Assembly: GCA_000004985.1 (NCBI GenBank)
Contig: GG739061.1
DNA: 8,540 bases
Source of the DNA: Naegleria gruberi
Taxonomy: Eukaryota
Direction: 5' to 3' (one strand)
In this document: piece by piece, positions 138 to 8,511 of the stretch
Layout: every line of letters begins with the position of its first letter
Position numbering within the stretch: position 1 is the first letter of the stretch
Notes under the pieces: model-generated
The model's database searches: none
What the model saw: the letters and a program-made list of their open reading frames with translations, nothing else
What the model was told of the DNA's origin: nothing
Position numbers and translations under genes: made by a program

Positions 138-779
138 ATGACCGTAAAAATCCTCCCTGTAAATAATACTGCCACCAATCAAACTAAATATTTCCTTTCT
201 AAGAATGAACAAATTGCTGAAGAAGAAACAATTTGGCTAAAGAAAAAGGAACGTTTTCTAACTTGTAAGGAAGCAATTAATAGAATCATGTGGGATTCTG
301 ATTTAAATGATGCCTATCTTCACTTGTCAATGATTTACAAAGACAGATTTGAAGGTGACACTTTTATTTCATATGAAGAATTCTTAAATAGTGATTTGGC
401 TGAAGAACTTCCACAACACCGAATTCAACAATTGATTTATAGAGATGAATATGTATTCTGGGATAAGAATAATAGAATTGACATGTTGTCAAATGGTCAA
501 TTGGGAGAATTGATTTTGAAATTCAAAAAGGAAGAACAAGAAAGAATTGCTAGAGAACATGCTGAATTCACAACTGTTTTACAACCAACAACTCCAGAAA
601 CCTCAACTTTAAAATCTTGTTCACAAAAGAAGAATAAGAAGAATAAGAAAATTATGAAGGAATTTGTTAGAAATCAAGAAACAGGCAAACAAATTGTTTC
701 ATCTATTGACGAGGATGATGAGTATGAACAATATATGGAAGAATATGATGAACAATATTCAATCTATTCTAAATATTAA
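138..779 (+). CDS. Intronless 213-aa hypothetical protein, possibly an MJ1316/DUF504-like RNA-end recognition domain, with a basic KKNKKNKK patch and an acidic Tyr-rich C-tail
   Basis: The frame is uninterrupted and this is the first ATG after an in-frame TAA at 129-131, with A at -3. The stop at 777-779 overlaps an AATAAA at 779-784. The 'RIMWDSDLN...LPQHRIQQLIYRDEYVFWDKNNRID' block resembles the MJ1316 domain consensus as I remember it. That match is unverified. Confidence 0.6.
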   Translation: MTVKILPVNNTATNQTKYFLSKNEQIAEEETIWLKKKERFLTCKEAINRIMWDSDLNDAYLHLSMIYKDRFEGDTFISYEEFLNSDLAEELPQHRIQQLIYRDEYVFWDKNNRIDMLSNGQLGELILKFKKEEQERIAREHAEFTTVLQPTTPETSTLKSCSQKKNKKNKKIMKEFVRNQETGKQIVSSIDEDDEYEQYMEEYDEQYSIYSKY

Positions 780-974: not shown

Positions 975-1945
975 TTACACTACTATTATTTGATTTCTTT
1001 CTCTTGCAGAAACAGTATTAATGAGCATTTGTCTTGCCAATTGTCCCATCAATCTGCCTTTCCACACCACAAATGCTTCATCCAAACACAATTGAGAAAA
1101 GAGCATGTGAGCTCTCTGAGCTGATTGAGACTCGGAAATTGTAATATCACATGTTTCATATTCAATTCGAATAATATCAGTTTCATCACGATCTTGCAAT
1201 TCGAAACTGGCATACCCAGCCATATTAGTTGCAGAAGAATCATTTCCATCATTTGCTGATCCATATCCTTCATCAGATATTGGTGCAAAATTTGATGCTT
1301 GAGTGATTTCCTTTCCTGAATTATTCAATCTAGCTTTCATTAGATTATATTGAAATTCCAAAGATTTCAGATGCACTTGTCCTAATAGAACCAAATTGTC
1401 CTTACTTGAAACAACGGGTAAAATCTTTGGTAATTTCTTCTTTTGTAAGAGGAGTTCAAGATCTCTCATTGAAACATTCTCTTCCAAAATGTCTAGTTTA
1501 TCGACAGATGTCATAATATTGGTAACTTTCAAATCTTCTGAATCTGTCATACTCTCCAATAATGCTGGCCATCCCTTTACCTTAATACTGGTATCATAAA
1601 AGTTTGCTGTGCACAATCTTGAAATTCTGACAGCTATCAAAGCAGCCATTAAACTTGGAAGATAAACAGCAACACCAACAATTTCAAGGAAGATGAAAAC
1701 AGTTGAAAATGCATGTGTGGCTGATGCTGTCAATGCCACAATACCAACAACTGCATAAGCTCCTGCATAAATTGGTTGTCCAGCAACAAATCCATTTGGA
1801 AATATAATTGCCACTATTTCTCCAAAGAATCTTCCACATCCAGCTCCAATAATAACTAGTGGAATGTATGTTCCTCCTGGAAGTGGCAAACTCATTGAAA
1901 AAATTGTGAATATCAATCGAATCACAATGAAAATGGCAAGAGAGG
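975..1945 (-). CDS. CLC terminal coding exon (from gap to stop): GxFxP-region, helix R, and two C-terminal CBS domains
   Basis: The frame is open from the gap edge (1945) to TAA at 977-975. It contains '..LPLPGGTYIPLVIIGAGCGRFFGE..PIYAGAYAVVGIVALTASATHAFSTVFIFLEIVGVAVYLPSLMAAL..YDTSIKVKGWPAL', which corresponds to CLC helices N-R. A CBS-like 'VTNIMTSV...LPKILPVVSSKDNLVLLGQVHLKSL' and a second CBS-like segment follow. The track's 'M' at 1925 is a GTG, not a start. Confidence 0.85.
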
Positions 1946-2320
1946 NNNNNNNNNNNNNNNNNNNNNNNNNNNNNNNNNNNNNNNNNNNNNNNNNNNNNNN
2001 NNNNNNNNNNNNNNNNNNNNNNNNNNNNNNNNNNNNNNNNNNNNNNNNNNNNNNNNNNNNNNNNNNNNNNNNNNNNNNNNNNNNNNNNNNNNNNNNNNNN
2101 NNNNNNNNNNNNNNNNNNNNNNNNNNNNNNNNNNNNNNNNNNNNNNNNNNNNNNNNNNNNNNNNNNNNNNNNNNNNNNNNNNNNNNNNNNNNNNNNNNNN
2201 NNNNNNNNNNNNNNNNNNNNNNNNNNNNNNNNNNNNNNNNNNNNNNNNNNNNNNNNNNNNNNNNNNNNNNNNNNNNNNNNNNNNNNNNNNNNNNNNNNNN
2301 NNNNNNNNNNNNNNNNNNNN
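1946..2320. other. Assembly gap (375 N) inside CLC gene
   Basis: A continuous run of N. The missing region should hold CLC helices F-M, including the 'proton glutamate' region. Confidence 0.99.
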
Positions 2321-2397
2321 GCTACCAATAGGTTTAAATATTGGAATTTTGAGCATGTTGTTGATTAGGAGAGCGCCAATATGAGCCGAAGGTCCAA
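2321..2397 (-). CDS. CLC coding exon 3, 5' part (continues into assembly gap)
   Basis: Acceptor tctcaaAG|TTGGACC is the only AG in the 44-nt intron. The phase-1 junction gives G+TT = Val, so the reading is 'GK-VGPSAHIGALLINNMLKIPIFKPIGS', the CLC GK(E)GP..H.GA block. It stays open into the N-run. Confidence 0.7.
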
Positions 2398-2441
2398 CTT
2401 TGAGATTCGAATAAAAATTATTTGACATTTTGCAAACTTAC
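2398..2441 (-). other. Spliceosomal intron 2 of CLC gene (44 nt, GTAAGT...CAAAG)
   Basis: Consensus GTAAGT donor and a single possible AG acceptor. Without splicing, the downstream CLC 'VGPSAHIGA' block is lost. Confidence 0.7.
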
Positions 2442-2525
2442 CTTTACCAAAAAACATTCCAGTTCCCAAAACCGCTGGAAGTGTAATAATTTTTACAAGA
2501 AATGTTTTGAAACTGAGAGGATCTT
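2442..2525 (-). CDS. CLC coding exon 2 (84 nt, phase 1-1)
   Basis: Acceptor ctcctttAG|AAGATCC and donor GGTAAAG|GTAAGTTT. Spliced to exon 1 it reads 'GSGIPAIKG-EDPLSFKTFLVKIITLPAVLGTGMFFGK', which matches the CLC helix D-E region. The unspliced ORF would hit a stop at 2558. Confidence 0.75.
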
Positions 2526-2613
2526 CTAAAGGAGTACCATTTAAAATAGCTAAATAATTATTCGAAAGATGTCACACATTCGAATAAAACTAATTTCAGT
2601 TGAAAACACTTAC
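2526..2613 (-). other. Spliceosomal intron 1 of CLC gene (88 nt, GTAAGT...TTTAG)
   Basis: It has a canonical donor and acceptor. Removing it restores a conserved CLC reading frame. Confidence 0.75.
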
Positions 2614-3337
2614 CTTTAATAGCTGGAATACCAGATCCCTCCGAAGCAGGCGCAATGAAAATCGTCATCATTAAACTCACATACATAAACACCAAATTAA
2701 ACAAAATCCACAAAACTAAACGTAATCCGAAATAACTATTCGAATCGAATGCATTTATCAAAGTCAACCTTCCCTGAAACATGTATTTGACAATCAAATC
2801 ATGCGTATAAATAATCACTCCACCAACAAATCCACAAACTGTTAGAAATGTCCAAGTATATTTCTTTCGTCTAATTCCTTTTAGACCTTTCTTCCAATTT
2901 TGAGTTTCTACATAATTTACATTCGAAGCATTCTTTAAATTTGTTAGAATTACTTTCGTTTCCATGTCGTCAAGAGTTGTTACGGTAGAGGATGCAGTCA
3001 ATCCTGTTTTTTTGCTAGTTTCGTTTGGAGTGATTGTGCTATCCGAAACAACATTAGGTTTCGTCGACTGTTTGTTAGAGTCATCCTTTGTGTCGTCGTT
3101 ATTGTTGTCGTTGTTGTGAATGGTCACGGTGGGTGAGACAACATCTGTGATCATTGCGTTTGTTGTTGTATTTTTTTTGCTTGAGAGAATCGTCCAATCT
3201 TTCGTATAAAACCATTTGGGGATTTTTTCAAAAGTGGTACCGTGAATTGATTTGTTTAGTACAGTGGAACTATATTTGAGTACATTGCATCTTAAATTGA
3301 ATTTATATGTAAATTGTTGAAAATTTTGAGAAATCAT
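2614..3337 (-). CDS. CLC chloride channel/transporter, coding exon 1 (N-terminus through GSGIP motif)
   Basis: ATG at 3337 is preceded by an in-frame TGA three codons upstream. The translation ends '...IAPASEGSGIPAIK', which is the CLC GSGIP selectivity-filter motif. The exon ends ATTAAAG|GTAAGT, a consensus donor at 2613-2608 on the minus strand. An Asn/Asp-rich N-terminal cytoplasmic tail is present. Confidence 0.85.
3092..3118. repeat. Imperfect GTY trinucleotide run (gtcgtcgttattgttgtcgttgttgtg) encoding N/D-rich low-complexity tract of CLC N-terminus
   Basis: Seen directly in the sequence. On the minus strand it encodes 'HNNDNNNDDTKDD'. Confidence 0.6.
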
Positions 3338-3639: not shown

Positions 3640-4452
3640 ATGAGAAAATCTGTCATGTTCTTTGGCTCCAAACTTAATAGAAACGAAGCCGATGAACAAT
3701 ACCTTCCCTACACCAACCATCGACACTCCAAAATGTTCGGTACCATTACTTCTTCGACTGTCAACAATCAAAATAATTCTTTAAATTTCACATTACCAAG
3801 AATTATAAATATTGACATGAAGGATCCTCTGAAATGTTTTGAATTTATTAATAATTGTGAAAAGGGTGCATTTAATGTCCATGCCATTGAATTTTCACAC
3901 GTTCAATATTTATTACAACAATTAGTTTGCAGTAATTCGATTTATAGTGAACTGCCAATATTTCACATCAAAAAGCAAGATAGAGTTTCACTTGATTTAT
4001 CAGTGAGTGTATCACCATCGACTCCAATTTCGACATCTCGAAGAGAAACAGTCAGTGGAAGTGGTGGATATTTAACTCCAAATTCACCAAATTTTGATGA
4101 TAATTCAAGTTCGAGTAGTTTGGGGTCAACTTTTACTAATCCTTCAATTCCAAATAAGGATTTACCAAGTATTAGCACTGGTTTGAATGAGAGGAAGGTT
4201 TCTGGATTTGGAAAGTTGAAGAAAATATTTCAGAAAGTTTCGCCTTCAACTCCTTCTTCTCCAAAAAAGAAAAGGGCAAAAGTTTTGAAGAATTTATTCG
4301 ATTCCATGCCTAATTTGACTAAATTGACCATGACAGAGAGTTTTGCAAATGAGATGGAGGCAGATTCATTTGAAGGTTATTCATTTGGTCATTTATGTGA
4401 ATATTTAACAAGTAGTGCAGTAACTTCCTTGACAGGTTTGACAAGTTTAGAA
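3640..4452 (+). CDS. N-terminal part of large LRR-containing protein: unique N-terminal region, Ser/Pro-rich linker with SV40-like NLS (SPKKKRAKV), onset of leucine-rich repeats; continues into gap
   Basis: This is the first ATG (3640, A at -3) in a frame open from 3556 (a GTG) to the gap. The sequence 'LKNLFDSMPNLTKLTMTESF...GHLCEYLTSSAVTSLTGLTSLE' is LRR-like and PKKKRAK is NLS-like. The N-terminal 150 aa shows no CARD, PYD, TIR or F-box. Confidence 0.6.
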
Positions 4453-7365
4453 NNNNNNNNNNNNNNNNNNNNNNNNNNNNNNNNNNNNNNNNNNNNNNNN
4501 NNNNNNNNNNNNNNNNNNNNNNNNNNNNNNNNNNNNNNNNNNNNNNNNNNNNNNNNNNNNNNNNNNNNNNNNNNNNNNNNNNNNNNNNNNNNNNNNNNNN
4601 NNNNNNNNNNNNNNNNNNNNNNNNNNNNNNNNNNNNNNNNNNNNNNNNNNNNNNNNNNNNNNNNNNNNNNNNNNNNNNNNNNNNNNNNNNNNNNNNNNNN
4701 NNNNNNNNNNNNNNNNNNNNNNNNNNNNNNNNNNNNNNNNNNNNNNNNNNNNNNNNNNNNNNNNNNNNNNNNNNNNNNNNNNNNNNNNNNNNNNNNNNNN
4801 NNNNNNNNNNNNNNNNNNNNNNNNNNNNNNNNNNNNNNNNNNNNNNNNNNNNNNNNNNNNNNNNNNNNNNNNNNNNNNNNNNNNNNNNNNNNNNNNNNNN
4901 NNNNNNNNNNNNNNNNNNNNNNNNNNNNNNNNNNNNNNNNNNNNNNNNNNNNNNNNNNNNNNNNNNNNNNNNNNNNNNNNNNNNNNNNNNNNNNNNNNNN
5001 NNNNNNNNNNNNNNNNNNNNNNNNNNNNNNNNNNNNNNNNNNNNNNNNNNNNNNNNNNNNNNNNNNNNNNNNNNNNNNNNNNNNNNNNNNNNNNNNNNNN
5101 NNNNNNNNNNNNNNNNNNNNNNNNNNNNNNNNNNNNNNNNNNNNNNNNNNNNNNNNNNNNNNNNNNNNNNNNNNNNNNNNNNNNNNNNNNNNNNNNNNNN
5201 NNNNNNNNNNNNNNNNNNNNNNNNNNNNNNNNNNNNNNNNNNNNNNNNNNNNNNNNNNNNNNNNNNNNNNNNNNNNNNNNNNNNNNNNNNNNNNNNNNNN
5301 NNNNNNNNNNNNNNNNNNNNNNNNNNNNNNNNNNNNNNNNNNNNNNNNNNNNNNNNNNNNNNNNNNNNNNNNNNNNNNNNNNNNNNNNNNNNNNNNNNNN
5401 NNNNNNNNNNNNNNNNNNNNNNNNNNNNNNNNNNNNNNNNNNNNNNNNNNNNNNNNNNNNNNNNNNNNNNNNNNNNNNNNNNNNNNNNNNNNNNNNNNNN
5501 NNNNNNNNNNNNNNNNNNNNNNNNNNNNNNNNNNNNNNNNNNNNNNNNNNNNNNNNNNNNNNNNNNNNNNNNNNNNNNNNNNNNNNNNNNNNNNNNNNNN
5601 NNNNNNNNNNNNNNNNNNNNNNNNNNNNNNNNNNNNNNNNNNNNNNNNNNNNNNNNNNNNNNNNNNNNNNNNNNNNNNNNNNNNNNNNNNNNNNNNNNNN
5701 NNNNNNNNNNNNNNNNNNNNNNNNNNNNNNNNNNNNNNNNNNNNNNNNNNNNNNNNNNNNNNNNNNNNNNNNNNNNNNNNNNNNNNNNNNNNNNNNNNNN
5801 NNNNNNNNNNNNNNNNNNNNNNNNNNNNNNNNNNNNNNNNNNNNNNNNNNNNNNNNNNNNNNNNNNNNNNNNNNNNNNNNNNNNNNNNNNNNNNNNNNNN
5901 NNNNNNNNNNNNNNNNNNNNNNNNNNNNNNNNNNNNNNNNNNNNNNNNNNNNNNNNNNNNNNNNNNNNNNNNNNNNNNNNNNNNNNNNNNNNNNNNNNNN
6001 NNNNNNNNNNNNNNNNNNNNNNNNNNNNNNNNNNNNNNNNNNNNNNNNNNNNNNNNNNNNNNNNNNNNNNNNNNNNNNNNNNNNNNNNNNNNNNNNNNNN
6101 NNNNNNNNNNNNNNNNNNNNNNNNNNNNNNNNNNNNNNNNNNNNNNNNNNNNNNNNNNNNNNNNNNNNNNNNNNNNNNNNNNNNNNNNNNNNNNNNNNNN
6201 NNNNNNNNNNNNNNNNNNNNNNNNNNNNNNNNNNNNNNNNNNNNNNNNNNNNNNNNNNNNNNNNNNNNNNNNNNNNNNNNNNNNNNNNNNNNNNNNNNNN
6301 NNNNNNNNNNNNNNNNNNNNNNNNNNNNNNNNNNNNNNNNNNNNNNNNNNNNNNNNNNNNNNNNNNNNNNNNNNNNNNNNNNNNNNNNNNNNNNNNNNNN
6401 NNNNNNNNNNNNNNNNNNNNNNNNNNNNNNNNNNNNNNNNNNNNNNNNNNNNNNNNNNNNNNNNNNNNNNNNNNNNNNNNNNNNNNNNNNNNNNNNNNNN
6501 NNNNNNNNNNNNNNNNNNNNNNNNNNNNNNNNNNNNNNNNNNNNNNNNNNNNNNNNNNNNNNNNNNNNNNNNNNNNNNNNNNNNNNNNNNNNNNNNNNNN
6601 NNNNNNNNNNNNNNNNNNNNNNNNNNNNNNNNNNNNNNNNNNNNNNNNNNNNNNNNNNNNNNNNNNNNNNNNNNNNNNNNNNNNNNNNNNNNNNNNNNNN
6701 NNNNNNNNNNNNNNNNNNNNNNNNNNNNNNNNNNNNNNNNNNNNNNNNNNNNNNNNNNNNNNNNNNNNNNNNNNNNNNNNNNNNNNNNNNNNNNNNNNNN
6801 NNNNNNNNNNNNNNNNNNNNNNNNNNNNNNNNNNNNNNNNNNNNNNNNNNNNNNNNNNNNNNNNNNNNNNNNNNNNNNNNNNNNNNNNNNNNNNNNNNNN
6901 NNNNNNNNNNNNNNNNNNNNNNNNNNNNNNNNNNNNNNNNNNNNNNNNNNNNNNNNNNNNNNNNNNNNNNNNNNNNNNNNNNNNNNNNNNNNNNNNNNNN
7001 NNNNNNNNNNNNNNNNNNNNNNNNNNNNNNNNNNNNNNNNNNNNNNNNNNNNNNNNNNNNNNNNNNNNNNNNNNNNNNNNNNNNNNNNNNNNNNNNNNNN
7101 NNNNNNNNNNNNNNNNNNNNNNNNNNNNNNNNNNNNNNNNNNNNNNNNNNNNNNNNNNNNNNNNNNNNNNNNNNNNNNNNNNNNNNNNNNNNNNNNNNNN
7201 NNNNNNNNNNNNNNNNNNNNNNNNNNNNNNNNNNNNNNNNNNNNNNNNNNNNNNNNNNNNNNNNNNNNNNNNNNNNNNNNNNNNNNNNNNNNNNNNNNNN
7301 NNNNNNNNNNNNNNNNNNNNNNNNNNNNNNNNNNNNNNNNNNNNNNNNNNNNNNNNNNNNNNNNN
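4453..7365. other. Assembly gap (2913 N) inside the LRR-protein gene
   Basis: A continuous run of N. It hides the central domain(s) and most of the repeats. Confidence 0.99.
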
Positions 7366-7711
7366 ACTTCAGCACTTAACCATTTCGAGAAATAATGTTG
7401 GCAGCTCTGGTTGTCTCTATCTGAATGCACTTTCAAAATTGGAATACTTGGATCTTGTTGGAAATGACATTAGGGATGCAGGATGTGAAATATTATGTAA
7501 TGGATCACTGACAAACGTTCGAGTTTTCCTTTTGAATCAGAATTTAATTGGTTTGGAAGGTGTGAAATTCCTGTTGAATGCAGATTTTCCAAAATTGGAA
7601 GAAATTCACTTACAGGATGCCAAGGATGGATCTATTCATGCCAATACTATTGAAAGACAACCTCTGGTAGAGCTATATACTTCTCATAAGAGTAAGGTTA
7701 TCCTCAAATAA
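7366..7711 (+). CDS. C-terminal ribonuclease-inhibitor (RNI)-type leucine-rich repeats of LRR protein, to stop codon
   Basis: Open from the gap edge to TAA at 7709-7711. The translation '..LQHLTISRNNVGSSGCLYLNALSKLEYLDLVGNDIRDAGCEILCNGSLTNVRVFLLNQNLIGLEGVKFLLNADFPKLEEIHLQD..' has the L..L.L..N.Igd.G...L periodicity of RNI-like LRRs (NLRC/RanGAP type). AATAAA at 7707-7712 overlaps the stop. The frame differs from the N-terminal part, which means nothing across an N-run of arbitrary length. Confidence 0.65.
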
Positions 7712-7974: not shown

Positions 7975-8511
7975 CTACATGGTGGTGGTTTTGAATCTAC
8001 TATGTTTGGTCAACCAAATGATTCCAAGAACTGAAATAATCAAAGCTGCTAACAAACTCATAATAGCACAAATCGTTAGTATTACAATATTATTCATCAG
8101 CAAACTCTTTACAAAGTAAACAGTACTGACAATGAATAGAGACACCAGAACAAACATGATACATCCCATCATGATATTCTTCTTGTTATTATCGAGTACC
8201 TTTCCCACTCGTTTCCAATAAGGTTCAGTCACCACAAGTGTTCGAATTGAGAATGACTGTTGTTTATGATATTGATCGTCACATGATAAATAACTGGAAA
8301 CTGATTCATTACAACTACAAACTGGTGACAATTCAGTGTCACAAATTAAAGCACCACTACCAAGTTTCGTCTCATAATAGTGTGCTTCGTTTTTGTAGTC
8401 AGGAGTTGTAGAAAACATGATCATTTGTTGTCCACTACTTGTAGTCGAATTTGTTGGATAGAGTGGATAGTGATCAGTTGAATTGGAATTAGATCGAGAT
8501 TGTTTGGCCAT
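7975..8511 (-). CDS. Orphan 178-aa membrane protein: hydrophilic Ser/Asn-rich N-terminus, Cys cluster (C..C.C...C), two C-terminal TM helices (hairpin)
   Basis: ATG at 8511 in 'agaaATGG' context and TAG stop at 7977-7975. The hydrophobic stretches 'IMMGCIMFVLVSLFIVSTVYFV' and 'IVILTICAIMSLLAALIISVLGIIWL' lie 7 residues apart. There is no signal peptide. I recognise no family. Confidence 0.55.
   Translation of the reverse strand: MAKQSRSNSNSTDHYPLYPTNSTTSSGQQMIMFSTTPDYKNEAHYYETKLGSGALICDTELSPVCSCNESVSSYLSCDDQYHKQQSFSIRTLVVTEPYWKRVGKVLDNNKKNIMMGCIMFVLVSLFIVSTVYFVKSLLMNNIVILTICAIMSLLAALIISVLGIIWLTKHSRFKTTTM

Follow-up and report, generated by a model that had tools for sequence, protein, structure and literature searches.

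How does a CLC protein work once it has lost its gating glutamate? In CLC proteins the carboxylate of this residue, Glu_ext, sits in S_ext or S_cen, where it serves both as the fast gate and as a proton shuttle. The question is raised by a gene of Naegleria gruberi, encoded on the minus strand at positions 975-3337 of an 8,540-nucleotide (nt) scaffold (contig GG739061.1); this complete scaffold is the window analysed here. An earlier note on the same DNA had proposed that valine stands at the gating-glutamate position of this CLC protein, tyrosine at the phenylalanine of its GxFxP motif and alanine after GSGIP, and that the protein may be an ungated channel-type CLC or have an altered selectivity filter. 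We find these residues where they had been placed. Judged from its sequence and that of its relatives, the protein is probably a functional CLC of the channel branch, with valine in place of both of its glutamates, which would carry a passive, H+-uncoupled anion flux without a glutamate gate. In fact, the change is far from rare: the same glutamate is missing from about a quarter of the relatives that we aligned.

The pore of the Naegleria CLC protein

To place the protein in its family we used the Pfam profile PF00654 (Voltage_CLC, cut-off 24.8 bits), and pore columns were assigned from phmmer alignments to solved CLC structures. Both halves of the gene match Voltage_CLC (53.7 and 61.4 bits), and the protein obtained after closing the assembly gap between them scores 202.7 bits (E = 1.1e-59) over profile positions 4-346 of 346. 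The best matches among solved structures are ClC-2, ClC-1, ClC-K and CmCLC, with ClC-2 at the top for the N-terminal and gap-region fragments and ClC-1 for the C-terminal half. By these matches, the predicted protein is a eukaryotic CLC of the channel-like branch (ClC-0/1/2/K, CmCLC).

The predicted pore columns align unambiguously with those of the solved CLCs. GKVGP, whose placement away from the G(K/R)EGP column would have told against the earlier proposal, falls in that very column, on GKEGP of human ClC-1 and ClC-2 and on GKVGP of ClC-Ka and bovine ClC-K, and its spacing from GSGIP (37 residues) is the same as in canonical CLCs. The motif is thus there in the form GKVGP, its Glu column occupied by Val, and this does not exclude membership of the CLC family because ClC-K has the same known exception. 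GGTYIP aligns on CGGFMP, CGAFMP and AGYFMP, with Tyr in the Phe_cen column where GxFxP has its Phe, and GSGIPA aligns on GSGIPE of ClC-1/2/K, with Ser_cen kept and Ala in place of Glu after the motif. Tyr_cen, at the N-terminus of helix R, is kept as well: NFYDTSIKVK aligns on SLYDSIIQVK of ClC-1, and the column is Tyr in 131 aligned relatives.

One pore residue cannot be read in the window: the helix with the "proton glutamate", Glu_in, lies within an assembly gap, as had been anticipated. The gap is closed by L001, a 2962-nt strain contig with 97.3% and 99.5% identity to the two sides of the gene, the same set of exons and an identical intron 2. The 375 N of the gap underestimate the missing sequence, for which L001 (positions 1081-1729) has 649 nt: exon 3 continues for 39 nt up to its end, intron 3 takes up 48 nt, and the remaining 562 nt open exon 4. 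Helices G-M are encoded here, and with them Phe_ex, in NFSTP, and the Glu_in position, in FALEV. The latter motif is aligned with FSIEV of ClC-1/ClC-2, which makes Glu_in a Val, a non-acidic residue as in the channel-like branch (ClC-0/1/2/K). The whole pore then reads Ser at Ser_cen, Lys in GKxGP, Val at Glu_ext, Phe at Phe_ex, Val at Glu_in (from L001), Tyr at Phe_cen and Tyr at Tyr_cen, and the immediate surroundings of the Glu_ext valine (F-G-K-V-G-P-S) hold no acidic residue. The complete protein of the L001 strain has 822 amino acids.

In the window, a 44-nt intron in phase 1 interrupts the valine codon. The joined exons read G-K-V-G-P, with Val as G|TT; the acceptor is the single one available, as the stretch from the intron 2 donor to the CLC frame downstream contains no other AG, and an intron left in place would disrupt the frame. 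An upstream GT donor (GGT|AAAG) would leave the Val unchanged but delete the conserved Gly-Lys, and was rejected. Still, the valine does not hang on this call, because it is also encoded where there is no intron to remove: L003, a 4306-nt contig presumably of heterolobosean origin with 63-67% protein identity to the CLC protein, lacks an intron at the Glu_ext codon and reads ggt aag gtt gga cca, thus GKVGP with GTT for Val. Its other pore motifs are VEA at Glu_in and GGFYIP in the Phe_cen region. Val at Glu_ext is also present in the N. gruberi paralogue P0003 (GDVGS), in P0007, P0012 and Willaertia P0009, and in N. lovaniensis P0160, which has GKVGP and LEA; two transcriptome-derived amoebozoan relatives, P0025 and P0062, likewise read GKVGP.

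Comparison of the two strains shows what kind of gene this is. Downstream of an indel in the N-terminal tail, 10 of 10 substitutions between window and L001 are synonymous in the 5' coding sequence (mostly membrane domain), and in exon 3 the five differences all hit the third base of a codon in the predicted frame. Further 3' there are two synonymous and three non-synonymous changes, all in the cytoplasmic tail, which brings the gene outside the indel region to 12 synonymous versus 3 non-synonymous. Orthologues at ~60-67% identity retain the open reading frame. From this substitution pattern, the intact orthologue L003 and the exons of L001, it follows that 975-3337 is a real, in-frame N. gruberi gene under purifying selection. 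The indel itself (12 nt, in frame, at 3101-3112 on the minus strand, in an Asn/Asp-rich tract that reads NNDNNNDDTKDD in the window versus NNNDTKDD in L001) is ordinary low-complexity length variation.

Recurrent loss of the gating glutamate

How unusual are these residues? A MAFFT alignment of fragmentary homologues was poor and was discarded, and the full-length N. gruberi paralogue P0003 alone served as query in a HMMER scan of 1.84 billion cluster representatives, which gave 4806 matches. The best 150 of these, together with other homologues and the gap-closed protein, formed the aligned set, almost all of it from the channel-like branch. Its Glu_ext column reads E 107, V 13, M 9, Q 7, D 3, L 2, A 2, T 1 and H 1, with the glutamate missing in 38 of the 145 sequences that cover the position (~26%). 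At Phe_cen the counts are F 88, Y 42, L 11, V 5, I 3, W 2 and A 1, which makes Tyr the residue of 42 out of 152 covering sequences (28%). The Glu_in column is dominated by valine (V 113, A 12, L 7, I 6, T 5, S 3, E 1, M 1), and the residue after GSGIP is E in 111, Q in 14, A in 6 and others in 13. Thus, the residues called non-canonical in the earlier note were identified correctly, but the rarity that the word implies is not borne out.

We followed these changes by Fitch parsimony on a quick neighbour-joining (NJ) tree built on cluster representatives, with the 142 sequences that cover all three sites. On this rough tree, Glu_ext switched between Glu and another residue at least 16 times, and Val has at least seven origins. 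The Naegleria/Willaertia clade has not a single Glu_ext among the members that cover the position: Val goes with Tyr at Phe_cen in the gene studied here, P0003, Willaertia magna P0009 and the metagenomic P0012, and Met goes with Tyr in N. gruberi P0010 and Willaertia P0014 and P0016, while further metagenomic members combine Thr at Glu_ext with Leu at Phe_cen (P0015) or Val with Trp (P0097). Elsewhere, Val at Glu_ext is found in Soliformovum, Luapelamoeba, Entamoeba and vertebrate ClC-K (e.g. gar), and other replacements are Met in nematodes, Gln in Mastigamoeba/Mastigella and Ala in Sphaeroforma. ClC-K itself (P0111 from gar, P0138, P0080) nests among metazoan sequences with Glu. On this sampling, loss of Glu_ext is frequent and convergent in the channel-like branch, and the Naegleria valine is convergent with that of ClC-K; our literature searches turned up no study that surveys variation at Glu_ext across a phylogeny.

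At least three N. gruberi paralogues belong to the Naegleria/Willaertia clade; their motifs are GKVGP/GSGIP (the gene here), GDVGS/GSGIS (P0003) and GKMGP/GSGLA (P0010). P0003 (769 amino acids) has GSGIS for GSGIP and GDVGS for GKEGP, so that an Asp directly precedes its Val; a contig search with P0003 found no contig that encodes it. In the Naegleria and Willaertia proteins of this clade, Glu_ext is Val or Met, Phe_cen is always Tyr and Glu_in is non-acidic. This pattern could mean that a whole CLC family, with at least three paralogue lineages, lost its gating glutamate early and lacks it to this day, as an ancient origin of constitutively conducting channels independent of ClC-K; we put this forward tentatively, and hold it to be possible rather than probable. 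Across the tree, Tyr at Phe_cen is present in 15 of 36 sequences without Glu_ext versus 19 of 106 with it. The excess comes mostly from two clades, and we do not take it as evidence that Tyr co-evolves with the loss of Glu_ext.

Gene model, public annotation and surroundings

The window has ~32% G+C, is gene-dense and contains two runs of N (1946-2320 and 4452-7365). The CLC gene consists of four exons and three short introns and encodes a protein of ~822-826 amino acids (Table 1). Every intron has GTAAGT at its 5' end and AG at its 3' end. As the earlier note had said, the protein begins with a long Asn/Asp-rich tail, which exon 1 encodes over ~150 residues that are also rich in Thr. Intron 1, on the other hand, had been called from 2526 to 2613 and has to be shortened by 24 nt. 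An 88-nt intron keeps the frame but deletes AILNGTPL, which is kept in all homologues and uninterrupted in L003; the 64-nt intron recovers the conserved IKAILNG, downstream of an exon 1 that ends in GGA TCT GGT ATT CCA GCT ATT AAA G (GSGIPAIK). In L003 (~1044-1058 and 1160-1210), introns 1 and 2 are absent and an intron lies exactly at the position of intron 3 (after ...CGC), which means that introns were gained or lost within this gene family.

Table 1. Features of the window, with the parts of the CLC gene in their order of transcription
Feature	Position	Strand	Description
Exon 1	3337..2614	-	start ATG at 3337; Asn/Asp/Thr-rich N-terminal tail, helices B-D, GSGIPA at 2638-2621
Ser_cen codon	2635-2633	-	TCT
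Ala codon after GSGIP	2623-2621	-	GCT
Intron 1	2613..2550	-	64 nt, phase 1, GTAAGT..TTTAG; matches public model P0001 and intron-less L003
Exon 2	2549..2442	-	108 nt; encodes AILNGTPLEDPLSFKTFLVKIITLPAVLGTGMFFGK and first base G (2442) of the Val codon; 3' end GGT AAA G
Intron 2	2441..2398	-	44 nt, phase 1, GTAAGT..CAAAG; interrupts the Val codon at the Glu_ext position
Exon 3, visible part	2397..2321	-	begins TT GGA CCT; TT at 2397-2396 completes Val; then GPSAHIGALLINNMLKIPIFKPIGS, into the gap
Assembly gap	1946..2320		375 N; stands for 649 nt
Exon 4, visible part	1945..975	-	helices N-R and cytoplasmic C-terminal region; single open frame to TAA at 977-975
GGTYIP	1877-1860	-	Tyr codon TAC at 1868-1866, Phe_cen position
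NFYDTS	1604..1587	-	Tyr_cen codon TAT at 1598-1596
MJ1316-domain gene	138-779	+	213-amino-acid protein
Leucine-rich-repeat gene	3640-7711	+	split by a 2914-N gap (4452-7365)
Open reading frame	7975-8511	-	178 amino acids

The public N. gruberi protein model for the CLC gene, P0001 (509 amino acids), should be replaced. It treats the gap region as an intron and splices the exon 2 donor at 2442 to an AG within exon 4 (CTAG|TTATTATT). The resulting artefact junction (1858-2442, CTAG|TTATTATTGGA) gives the product FFGKVIIGAGCG, in which "GKV" is retained by coincidence. P0001 lacks ~310 internal residues (helices F-N), and it starts at the ATG at 3154, not at 3337.

Introns 1 and 2 have a 12-mer in common, TTTTATTCGAAT, and in each of them TTCGAAT lies 8-12 nt upstream of the 3' splice site. 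The decamer TTATTCGAAT, with at most one mismatch, has six copies in the window versus 0.93 expected, a number reached in none of 200 shuffles; the copies at 2405-2414, 2578-2587 and 2558-2567 are those of introns 1 and 2, and the others are at 1165-1174, 2736-2745 and 4294-4303. In L001, intron 3 lacks the decamer and the second copy of intron 1 is mutated. The element might be branch-site-like or merely compositional.

Convergent with the CLC gene, 3'-to-3' and with stop codons 195 nt apart, lies a gene for a protein with an MJ1316 RNA cyclic-group end recognition domain (Pfam PF04457, E = 3.3e-07). The large gene on the other side is divergent from the CLC gene, at a distance of ~300 nt, and the C-terminal part of its product carries RNI-type leucine-rich repeats (LRR_6, LRR_4). 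The open reading frame at the far end of the window has a Ser/Thr-rich N-terminus and hydrophobic C-terminal segments, with a sub-threshold Pfam match to Glucos_trans_II (17.5 bits, cut-off 30).

A probable CLC channel without its gating glutamate

What would such a pore do? Without a carboxylate at Glu_ext, nothing would occlude S_ext and nothing would shuttle protons. The protein would then be expected to carry a passive, H+-uncoupled anion (Cl-) flux that lacks a glutamate-based fast gate as well as voltage or pH gating, like ClC-K and E148A-type mutants, and any remaining regulation might act via the common gate or the cytoplasmic C-terminal domain. The earlier proposal of an ungated channel-type CLC gains strength from the closed gap, since a second Val, at Glu_in, completes the pair seen in ClC-K, where the Val-to-Glu mutation V166E reportedly brings about fast voltage-dependent gating. 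Its second suggestion, an altered selectivity filter, found no specific evidence: the kept Ser_cen, Tyr_cen and GKxGP Lys would argue for ordinary Cl- selectivity. CLC channels typically have the permeability sequence Cl- > Br- > NO3- > I-. As for the tyrosine, the aromatic slide of the protonated glutamate (Glu_ex) is made up of Phe_cen (F357) and Phe_ex (F190), which both act through that glutamate; F357A and F357L degrade coupling, and on the H+-uncoupled E148A background F357A causes little further transport defect, 582 versus 974 ions/s (Leisle et al. 2020, PMC7274781). Tyr at Phe_cen could thus fit a relaxed constraint on a slide that has no Glu_ext left to guide.

Known CLC systems offer several comparisons. 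With ClC-K (ClC-Ka/Kb; bovine PDB 5TQQ, human ClC-Ka PDB 11AH) the Naegleria protein has in common GKVGP, Val at Glu_in, the kept Ser_cen, Phe_ex and Tyr_cen and the channel-like sequence branch. However, the two do not share this state by descent, the Naegleria/Willaertia clade being separate in the NJ tree, and they differ in that ClC-K has Phe at Phe_cen (GYFMP) instead of Tyr and the Naegleria protein has its long N-terminal tail. In vertebrates, barttin is an essential ClC-K subunit, as stated in a passage of PMC4188032. By sequence, then, the Naegleria protein is ClC-K-like in its predicted working and not ClC-K by descent. ClC-0/1/2 resemble it in Val at Glu_in (FSIEV versus FALEV), motif spacing and a homologous C-terminal cytoplasmic region, but keep Glu_ext, their fast gate, in GKEGP and the Phe at Phe_cen. 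A parallel in another microbe is Entamoeba, where E. histolytica and relatives have a GKVGP paralogue (P0127, P0163/P0174) beside a GKEGP one (P0162), although the Val proteins have Phe at Phe_cen and belong to another clade. EhClC-A of Entamoeba behaves as a ClC-2-like, pH-insensitive Cl- channel (PMC9799330); it is either the GKEGP or the GKVGP member of the E. histolytica pair. Finally, E148A-type exchanger mutants also lack the Glu_ext carboxylate and are expected to pass Cl- passively, uncoupled from H+ (PMC7274781), but they are engineered on exchanger scaffolds that keep Glu_in, whereas the Naegleria change is natural, conserved across genera and set in a channel-like scaffold.

Several points weigh against reading the protein as a glutamate-free channel. 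A fast channel and a slow uncoupled transporter cannot be separated by sequence alone. The splice junctions are predictions from genomic sequence, and Val at Glu_in was read from a strain contig 97-99.5% identical to the gene, not from the window. CmCLC, which lacks Glu_in, is still an exchanger according to work cited in a passage of PMC4746265, so that the loss of Glu_in alone says little. Tyr at Phe_cen is not diagnostic either, as the 19 of 106 relatives that combine it with Glu_ext make plain. Pfam finds no CBS match in the CLC protein and a weak one in the Willaertia orthologue; in phmmer alignments the C-terminus does pair with the regions of CBS1 and CBS2 in ClC-1/2/K, and a single stretch pairs it with residues 322-617 of CmCLC. 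Our literature searches gave no paper on Naegleria CLCs and no functional data for a heterolobosean CLC, and the literature on the contractile vacuole held nothing usable for a physiological role.

Could the residues mean something else? The protein may have changed its substrate or role, with anion selectivity retuned (e.g. to nitrate, bicarbonate or organic anions) by Tyr at Phe_cen, Ala after GSGIP and Val at Glu_ext, or with a new part as a poorly conducting regulatory partner in heterodimers with other CLC paralogues of Naegleria. The differing pore motifs of the N. gruberi paralogues would suit such a change, the backbone of Phe_cen lines S_cen and S_ext (PMC7274781), and there is a precedent in Trypanosoma brucei, in whose TbVCL2 the consensus pore residues Ser, Glu_ext, Glu_in and Tyr are all absent (PMC5731698), although the TbVCLs are ClC-6/7-like and not of the channel branch. 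Against it, Tyr_cen and Lys are kept, Tyr at Phe_cen occurs among relatives that have Glu_ext too and so does not mark an unusual pore, and there is no evidence for heterodimers. Moreover, nitrate-selective plant CLCs are marked by a proline at the Ser_cen position, and here Ser_cen is kept. On balance, we consider a changed substrate or role unlikely.

A coupled Cl-/H+ exchanger that uses another residue as its proton shuttle seems less probable still, and we give it little credence. CmCLC does exchange without Glu_in, and ClC-7 E312A retains residual transport according to an excerpt of PMC7681918, but such exceptions concern Glu_in, not Glu_ext. Neutralisation of Glu_ext abolishes coupling in the exchangers tested, E148A being H+-uncoupled (PMC7274781), and in the Naegleria protein the valine has no acidic neighbour and Glu_in is gone too. 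As to whether the valine exists at all, a misplaced splice junction, a misassembly or a decaying pseudogene might be suspected on a small, gapped scaffold whose public model is clearly wrong across the gap. That suspicion is effectively refuted by the independent assembly L001, with its same exons and identical intron 2, by the GTT of the intron-less L003, by strain substitutions that are all synonymous in the 5' coding sequence downstream of the indel and by the GKVGP of the transcriptome-derived amoebozoan proteins. A functional channel-branch CLC without a glutamate gate thus remains our preferred reading.

Seen against its relatives, in which the same Glu_ext change appears to have arisen many times, the Naegleria gene is neither exceptional nor a new class of system. 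What the analysis adds is the closure of the gap, the correction of the public model and the evidence for frequent, convergent loss of Glu_ext. If the proposed function holds, the Naegleria protein would be a natural CLC without barttin and without both glutamates, a microbial counterpart of ClC-K. It would be a tool for asking what, apart from Glu_ext, makes a channel of a CLC, and for seeing what a Tyr at Phe_cen does once the aromatic slide has no glutamate left to guide. Should the gating glutamate have been lost early and lastingly throughout the Naegleria and Willaertia family, this loss, together with the repeated changes of Glu_ext across the channel-like branch, would offer a wealth of natural experiments on how a CLC becomes a channel. 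More generally, channel-branch CLCs without the gating glutamate turn up in Heterolobosea, Amoebozoa, Archamoebae, an ichthyosporean, nematodes and vertebrates, and this recurrence qualifies a common textbook statement.

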